DNA from: Escherichia coli
GTDB taxonomy: Bacteria > Pseudomonadota > Gammaproteobacteria > Enterobacterales > Enterobacteriaceae
Length of the DNA stretch: 64,000 nt
Reading direction: 5' to 3' (one strand)
NCBI RefSeq assembly: GCF_045037415.1
Contig: NZ_CP173438.1
Shown here piece after piece: positions 57,182-57,632 of this stretch. Each line of letters starts with the position of its first letter. Within the stretch, counting starts at the first letter, position 1. The notes below the pieces were generated by a model. That model searched no databases. It saw nothing but the letters and a program-made list of their open reading frames with translations, and was not told where the DNA came from. The position numbers were made by a program, and so were the translations under genes.

Positions 57182-57183
57182 TA

Positions 57184-57212
57184 AGCAGTCCGGGCTGATT
57201 GCCCGGACTGCT
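57184..57212 (+). terminator. hairpin immediately after the integrase stop codon
   Basis: agcagtccgggc-tgatt-gcccggactgct, 12-bp perfect stem, followed by a T-rich tract. Confidence 0.55.
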
Positions 57213-57557
57213 TTAACTGATTATTTTTCTTTGTAAATGATGACGAAGATTGATGTTCTGACAAGTTACTCCGGCGTCCATTAAAGTCCCTTCGTCATGT
57301 TCTTCAGGCTATTTATGACTGTGATTAGCACCAGGAATATCTGGTTTCCATGAGAGCAGGTAATAACCCCCGGTGTTTTCGGCTGTTCTGGTATCCTTGT
57401 CCAACACAGGCAGTCATTATAAACGGTAAAAAATGTATTCACTGTTATGAAATCAATAGTCCTGACGTACTGTTGAATGTGCTTGTGTTCTGAACCTTGT
57501 ACAACCAGTACATTTGATACCGAATTATAAACAAAACATTGCATCCAACTTTTTCAA

Positions 57558-57578
57558 TATGGACAATAGTTGTCCATA
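57558..57578. promoter_or_regulatory. perfect palindrome (candidate operator) upstream of the helicase-nuclease gene
   Basis: tatggacaa-tag-ttgtccata: 9-bp arms around a 3-bp centre, 55 bp upstream of the ATG at 57633, inside an AT-rich intergenic region. Confidence 0.4.
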
Positions 57579-57632
57579 CGGTGGTTTTATATTCGATAAA
57601 TCAATGGATTTCATTGAGTCACAGGACTGGTA

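Follow-up and report, generated by a model that had tools for sequence, protein, structure and literature searches.

In Mokosh type II defence, a single protein joins an N-terminal SF1 helicase to a C-terminal PLD nuclease. The Mokosh type II system of Escherichia coli 5-366-08_S1_C1 was synthesised with 333 bp of its native upstream DNA (construct SG150), and the construct was scored as verified phage defence under the native promoter in E. coli MG1655 (Millman et al., bioRxiv 10.1101/2022.05.11.491447). We analysed a 64,000-nucleotide stretch of an E. coli genome (RefSeq assembly GCF_045037415.1, contig NZ_CP173438.1; hereafter the window), in which a gene labelled just 'AAA domain-containing protein' (57633-61147, plus strand) follows the gene of a P4-type tyrosine integrase. 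The product matched the PADLOC MkoC model end to end (residues 1-1169, E = 0, 1685 bits), hit AAA_11, AAA_12 and PLDc_2 in Pfam, and had the SF1 helicase and the PLD nuclease in the order described above; therefore, the gene was assigned to Mokosh type II as mkoC. The subject of this study is the gap between the two genes, which is a mosaic of three parts of separate history: a hairpin directly after the integrase gene (57183-57213), a decayed relic of a phosphoethanolamine (pEtN) transferase gene (57213-57457), and a region linked to mkoC (57477-57632). Taken jointly, as a hairpin terminator, a gene relic and an mkoC promoter with its leader, this explanation of the gap is in our judgement probably correct. 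On this explanation, the unannotated gap beside a defence gene would hold the scar of a pseudogene between a terminator and a promoter, and not a hidden gene or RNA. Its relevance is chiefly for annotation, with modest new information in the identity of the relic and in a conserved promoter/leader signature of enterobacterial Mokosh type II.

The gap comprises 451 bp (57182-57632), from the integrase stop codon ending at 57181 to the mkoC ATG at 57633, and its GC content is 39.2% versus 51.1% for the whole window, which places it within the lowest 1.7% of all 451-bp windows in the 64 kb. The most AT-rich part is the mkoC-proximal 190 bp (57441-57632), with 34-36% GC. These values agree with the original prediction, made from the sequence alone, of about 450 bp of AT-rich DNA between an integrase and a defence gene. 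The integrase gene on the left (55919-57181, plus strand) is a 420-aa open reading frame (ORF) with hits to Arm-DNA-bind_3, Phage_int_M and Phage_integrase in Pfam, and is annotated as an integrase in RefSeq. As a tRNA-Phe gene lies upstream of it at 55646-55721, after dsbD-dicD, the island site was identified as pheU. The gap is 100% identical to that of genomes of sequence type 131 (ST131)/O25b:H4, and the full gap (at least 80% covered) was found in 721 of 5426 complete E. coli genomes (~13%), which were also the set covered by the searches described next. Among the 60 genomes listed, no RefSeq feature was annotated under the gap except for a fragment of a pEtN transferase in one.

About 1080 E. 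coli genomes had a match, and the sub-segments of the gap occurred independently of each other. Loci L003 and L006 (pheV) carry the integrase-proximal 232-376 bp of the gap with Phe-type integrases and with unrelated cargo or an insertion sequence (IS) in place of mkoC, and the first 58-93 bp, containing the hairpin, is alone common to still other islands. From the opposite end, 57477-57632 (156 bp) accompanies mkoC behind unrelated genes and without an integrase at leuX (L002), 278 bp of the gap accompanies mkoC without this integrase at selC (L005), and the proximal 160 bp was found in 889 genomes versus 890 for mkoC. Strain S88 has an identical integrase gene (0 of 1263 nt differ) followed by 3-4% divergence from the hairpin onward, and another leuX island (L030) has an integrase gene with 64% identity followed by 98-100% identity from the hairpin onward. 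IS elements were located at positions equivalent to ~57274, 57413 and 57436 in other strains; the strain with the IS at 57436 (L004) is the sole such case that still has mkoC, where the gene is annotated as intact. These comparisons show recombination joints between the integrase, scaffold and cargo modules of islands at pheU, pheV, leuX and selC. We propose that successive recombination events at the left end of the island, next to tRNA-Phe, would have left a junction of three ordinary pieces. The arrangement resembles the pseudogene remnants at cargo-exchange junctions of tRNA islands with P4-type integrases (pheU, pheV, selC, leuX), in which a gene fragment marks the place of a cargo swap, cargo and integrases vary around a common scaffold, and IS elements are inserted nearby. 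It differs in that the relic in the window is old (~63% identity to the intact gene) and, at Phe-tRNA sites, has become fixed in the scaffold next to the integrase gene; otherwise nothing is unusual, and a gap content of this kind is commonplace at the left end of tRNA-linked islands. In E. coli LWY24 (locus L002 at leuX), mkoC is part of a small group of defence genes: upstream of it is an HNH endonuclease gene, and downstream are genes for a restriction endonuclease and a TIR-domain protein. Between mkoC and the tRNA-Leu gene, the annotation shows no integrase.

The middle part of the gap was identified by comparison with locus L007, which carries an intact gene for a 557-aa pEtN transferase. 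The alignment of 57213-57440 with the 3′ end of that gene and the spacer behind it contained 162 identical columns out of 258 (~63%; z = 13.7), and none of 1000 shuffled sequences reached the score. On the minus strand, the stop codon of the ancestral gene falls at 57266-57268 in this alignment. To one side of it, 57213-57265 is homologous to the spacer downstream of the intact gene (local alignment to L007 5080-5132), and on the other, 57266-57457 corresponds to a decayed 3′ end of the gene (approximately residues 489-557), which has lost some 490 N-terminal codons and carries indels in the rest. The relic was extended to ~57457 because an 87-aa reverse ORF in the gap matched residues 489-534 of the intact protein in BLASTP (46% identity, E = 3e-5). 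These alignments identify 57213-57457 (~245 bp) as the minus-strand remains of a gene for a sulfatase-family, EptA-like pEtN transferase, comprising its last ~65 codons and the spacer behind them. In the selC island L005, PGAP annotates a better-preserved pEtN transferase fragment, lacking the N-terminus, just upstream of the mkoC region. The lone pEtN transferase fragment annotated under the gap in one of the 60 genomes listed also backs the identification as a relic. The rest of the transferase gene would have been replaced on arrival of the Mokosh cassette.

A second pEtN transferase gene (61256-62755, minus strand) faces mkoC in convergent orientation and encodes a 499-aa paralogue. The ORF is intact in the window, but its counterpart in the ST131 strain O25b:H4 (L001) is flagged as a truncated pseudogene by RefSeq. 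The idea of one pEtN transferase gene interrupted by mkoC, with the 499-aa gene as its N-terminal part, was discarded; the paralogue shows 28% identity to the 557-aa gene product and looks complete.

The 87-aa ORF had been reported in the original prediction as the sole content of an otherwise non-coding interval and as being of doubtful composition. It does exist, at 57281-57544 on the minus strand, and the doubt was justified; what that description overlooked is that about half of the gap is a pseudogene relic. The ORF follows the reading frame of the relic and continues past it into the DNA upstream of mkoC, and the C-terminal two thirds of its product align with the pEtN transferase C-terminus. 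That it encodes a genuine small protein, as its open frame and ATG start would allow, is extremely improbable: the product had no match in Pfam, the RefSeq genomes listed carried no annotation of the ORF, and its homology is to the C-terminal fragment of a gene, with indels. The ORF further crosses two homology breakpoints, one at ~57355, where close homology to L005 begins, and one at 57477, where the mkoC-linked segment begins, and its start codon lies inside the proposed -35 region of mkoC (see below). On this sequence evidence, the 87-aa ORF is a chance frame over the relic and not a gene.

The hairpin at the left edge of the gap had been predicted as strong, and was indeed so on folding. 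It starts two bases past the integrase stop codon and occupies 57183-57213, where a stem of 13 bp, nine of them G-C pairs, encloses a loop of 5 nt. When the 66 nt around it were folded, the energy was -29 kcal/mol (z = -7.3), a stability that none of 200 shuffled sequences reached. The terminator scan accepted the hairpin on the minus strand (five T in eight positions). In two diverged islands, the stem is changed on both sides in a compensatory manner, GCAGTCC/GGACTGC becoming GCACTCC/GGAGTGC in L011 and the L009 variant being CCCCGGGC/GCCCGGGG. The 5-nt loop (57196-57200) is reverse-complemented between strains, being TGATT in the window and in a leuX island and AATCA in S88, 55989 and others; this flip is an inversion of the centre of a palindrome, of the kind that template switching produces. 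The compensatory stem changes together with the flippable loop indicate that selection maintains the structure, in keeping with a role as terminator. The hairpin is thus probably a bidirectional intrinsic terminator, which would end transcription of the integrase gene and formerly also that of the convergent pEtN transferase gene. Like the bidirectional intrinsic terminators known between convergent genes, it is a G+C-rich stem-loop with a 13-bp stem right after a stop codon, is T-rich on both sides, and has its stem kept through compensatory substitutions, and in the intact arrangement of L007 a hairpin occupies the equivalent place between a TPR gene and the pEtN transferase gene. It differs from them in its interrupted plus-strand U-tract (UUUAACUGAUUAUUUUU) and in that, of the two convergent genes, one survives as no more than a relic. 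Nine nucleotides of the left hairpin arm (57187-57195; AGTCCGGGC) recur at the 3′ end of tRNA-Phe (55709-55717), the attachment core of the island. As the diverged islands have different stem sequences, this identity was judged to be probably a coincidence and was not taken as an att remnant.

The last part of the gap (57477-57632, plus strand), present with mkoC behind unrelated upstream DNA at leuX and selC, was further compared beyond E. coli. A scan of one genome per species yielded 15 mkoC loci, and the upstream regions of 11 enterobacterial homologues (62-97% protein identity), from Escherichia, Enterobacter, Phytobacter, Erwinia, Tatumella and other Enterobacterales, were aligned. Homology across genera was limited to ~100 bp next to mkoC, in which 35 of 118 columns were invariant, including one run of 8 nt. 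In the coding region of the same 11 sequences, neutral sites are saturated: invariance is limited to 6% of third codon positions and to 3% of four-fold-type sites, and the longest invariant runs in the 3.5 kb of coding DNA were 9, 8, 8 and 8 nt. The invariance upstream, set against the 6% at third positions, shows strong purifying selection on the upstream blocks. The original prediction would have been contradicted by the absence of conserved blocks among homologous islands, and the comparison it suggested instead revealed such sub-segments, chiefly in the last ~100 bp.

From left to right, the conserved blocks are a candidate -35 element TTGCAT (57539-57544), of which TTGC (57539-57542) is invariant in 11 of 11 homologues; the invariant octamer TGGACAAT (57560-57567), which contains a candidate -10 element GACAAT (57562-57567); a CAT (57576-57578); an AT block TTTATAT (57586-57592, with TTTA.A at 57586-57591; T61, A62 and A64 invariant, T59 and T60 nearly so); an AAYCAA-N4-TT block (57599-57611), found in 11 of 11 homologues and resembling the core of an integration host factor (IHF) site, at a fixed distance of 37-39 nt from TGGACAAT; and a Shine-Dalgarno sequence AGGA (57623-57626), 6 nt before the ATG and with a conserved GGA. 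All of these are on the plus strand, and ATGGA at the start codon of mkoC is likewise conserved. The arrangement TTGCnn, 16-17 nt, GACAAT was found in all 11 homologues, with a spacer of 17 nt in the window, and the candidate holds both critical bases of the -10 element (A at -11 and T at -7) as well as the TTG of the -35. Most likely, the blocks include a weak sigma-70 promoter consisting of TTGCAT, a 17-bp spacer and GACAAT, with a predicted start at ~57574. The last ~156 bp of the gap would have come with mkoC, its proximal ~100 bp serving as promoter and leader, and an unstructured leader of ~58 nt would carry the AT block, the IHF-like box and the ribosome-binding site. From this comparison, the smallest portable unit of E. 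coli-type Mokosh II is ~100 bp of upstream DNA plus the gene; the comparison also supplies concrete bases to mutate in work on mkoC expression.

Two other readings of these blocks were set aside. TATATT (57588-57593) was not the first choice for a -10 element because most homologues have C as its last base and a workable -35 is lacking (TGGACA is 22 nt away). A leader peptide starting at the ATG or GTG formed by (A/G)TGGACAAT would have no ribosome-binding site and a length ranging from 4 to more than 24 codons, and its wobble positions are invariant. In six homologues not of the E. coli type (L014, L015, L018, L023, L024 and L025), a conserved dyad TGCGA-N6-TCGCA was located in the -35/spacer region, ~40-25 nt upstream of TGGACAAT. 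It resembles the half-sites of CRP-family regulators, and the window allele is AT-rich there instead.

The construct SG150 is of the L002/leuX type and contains TTGCAG, N16, GACAAT and the AATCAATGGATTT box. It belongs to the same gene family as the window mkoC, and the proximal 73 bp of the window (57560-57632) are 95-97% identical to its allele type, whereas the window allele has a 17-nt spacer (16 nt in the construct) and a perfect palindrome, and is only ~70% identical upstream of 57560. A promoter had been one of the functions suggested for the gap, and the defence conferred by this sister allele with its native upstream DNA, together with the cross-genus purifying selection on ~100 bp, speaks for it indirectly.

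Several observations weigh against the reading of the gap as terminator, relic and promoter. The candidate promoter has 7 of 12 consensus matches (8 of 12 in alleles with TTGCGA) against a scan threshold of 9 of 12, its position weight matrix (PWM) score is 7.6 bits versus a mean best score of 10.9 bits for shuffled sequences, and the promoter scan reported no plus-strand promoter in 57440-57632. As promoter prediction, proposed beforehand as a check, gave nothing above the shuffled background in the gap by either the tool scan or the PWM scan, the promoter call rests on conservation, and no usable mapped start sites for ST131 or uropathogenic E. coli were found in the literature. The invariant octamer TGGACAAT reaches 2 nt past the -10 hexamer and could alternatively be a protein-binding site, and vector read-through is a possible source of SG150 expression. 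On the plus strand, the hairpin failed the terminator scan; UUU follows the stem directly and the second U-run comes 11 nt further on (UUUAACUGAUUAUUUUU). The relic diverges by 3-5% within E. coli versus 2-3% for mkoC, which is not faster, so that its neutrality is not formally shown.

A small RNA, also suggested originally for a gap of this size, could be encoded in two ways: as a minus-strand transcript of ~230 nt running from a TATAAT at 57421-57416 to the hairpin at 57213-57183, or as a plus-strand RNA ending at the palindrome discussed below and the T-run behind it. The TATAAT is a perfect minus-strand -10 hexamer, the hairpin scores as a minus-strand terminator, and the minus-strand fold has a z-score of -3.1; the palindrome followed by GGTTTT was flagged as terminator-like on the plus strand. 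Yet the hexamer derives from the coding sequence that became the relic, its -35 is poor, and the z-score of the minus-strand fold is mostly due to the hairpin itself. The stretch is interrupted by IS elements in other strains, and the segment was not found next to mkoC outside E. coli and E. albertii. The Rfam search of the gap gave no match at E values up to 10, RNAalifold on the aligned upstream regions gave no conserved structure (consensus -0.84 kcal/mol, 0 compensatory pairs), and the folding z-score of the leader was -0.05. A small RNA in the gap is thus very unlikely, and the suggestion was not borne out.

The candidate operator reported earlier at 57558-57578 is a perfect palindrome, TATGGACAATAGTTGTCCATA, with a 9+3+9 dyad, and occurs once in the window. 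The palindrome itself was therefore correctly noted, but its symmetry is not conserved: complementarity of the arms is 9/9 in the window allele versus 3-7/9 in the other 10 homologues, the left arm being invariant and the right arm variable. On this alignment, the palindrome is specific to the window allele, and the left arm, not the dyad, is what is conserved. An operator at which a dimeric repressor or activator controls mkoC would fit the perfect dyad, a left arm invariant across genera, the overlap with the proposed core promoter, and the presence of two independent homology breakpoints (L006 and L002) at the left edge of the palindrome. Such an operator is nevertheless unlikely, given the lack of dyad conservation in the other 10 homologues, the absence of any regulator gene conserved beside mkoC, whose neighbours differ in every locus compared, and the absence of a second copy of the palindrome in the window.

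The two homology breakpoints fall at 57557/57558. L006, which has other cargo and no mkoC, keeps 57477-57557 and diverges exactly at 57558 (L006 6376), and the leuX allele L002 shows ~70% identity over 57480-57559 but, from 57560 up to the ATG, 95-97%, as high as in the coding region (discontinuity at L002 ~6080). This position may be a recurrent recombination boundary of the mkoC cassette.

The AT-richness of the gap raises the question of xenogeneic silencing, another of the functions originally suggested, in which H-NS would nucleate on 57441-57632 and repress mkoC (perhaps also the integrase gene), with the IHF-like box as an anti-silencing or bending site. The GC content of the gap (39% overall, 34-36% proximally, within the lowest 1.7% of the window), its location in horizontally acquired island DNA, and the conserved AT block and IHF-like core in the leader are all consistent with such a target, and silencing is compatible with the promoter explanation and not exclusive of it. 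However, the sister allele with native upstream DNA was expressed enough in E. coli MG1655 for defence, and the invariant blocks are specific sequences and not mere AT content. That the interval is mainly a silencing target is accordingly a tentative possibility, on the unlikely side.

The core consensus of IHF sites is WATCAANNNNTTR, with an upstream A/T tract. The invariant positions of the AA(T/C)CAA-N4-TT block coincide with the specified positions of this consensus, the N positions vary, and an A/T block is located ~8 bp upstream. The block departs from the consensus in that the final R is present in 1 of 11 homologues and C replaces T at position 3 in 2 of 11. As the final purine is usually absent, IHF binding to this putative site is only a lead. 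A more far-reaching possibility is that the conserved ~100-bp cassette (TTGC, N16-17, TGGACAAT, the AT block and AAYCAA-N4-TT) goes beyond a simple constitutive promoter and, as a portable switch that accompanies Mokosh type II from genus to genus, senses a universal host factor such as IHF or one that recognises TGGACAAT. If so, the switch would adjust or set off expression of a helicase-nuclease that is potentially toxic. We regard this as speculative and quite unlikely; the preferred reading of the cassette remains a weak promoter followed by a leader.

The mkoC gene of the window itself carries a 1-bp deletion at ~57980 (CCCAGGAACC to CCCAGAACC), causing a frameshift relative to L001 and splitting the 1171-aa gene into ORFs at 57633-58187 and 57995-61147. 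The exact 81-mer with the deletion was found in 12 of 842 genomes, several of them from one assembly series, which leaves two readings of the window copy, a rare pseudogene allele and an error of the assembly. Elsewhere in the window, three tandem tRNA-Gly(GCC) genes are located at 26191-26489 on the minus strand, forming an ordinary tandem tRNA cluster.
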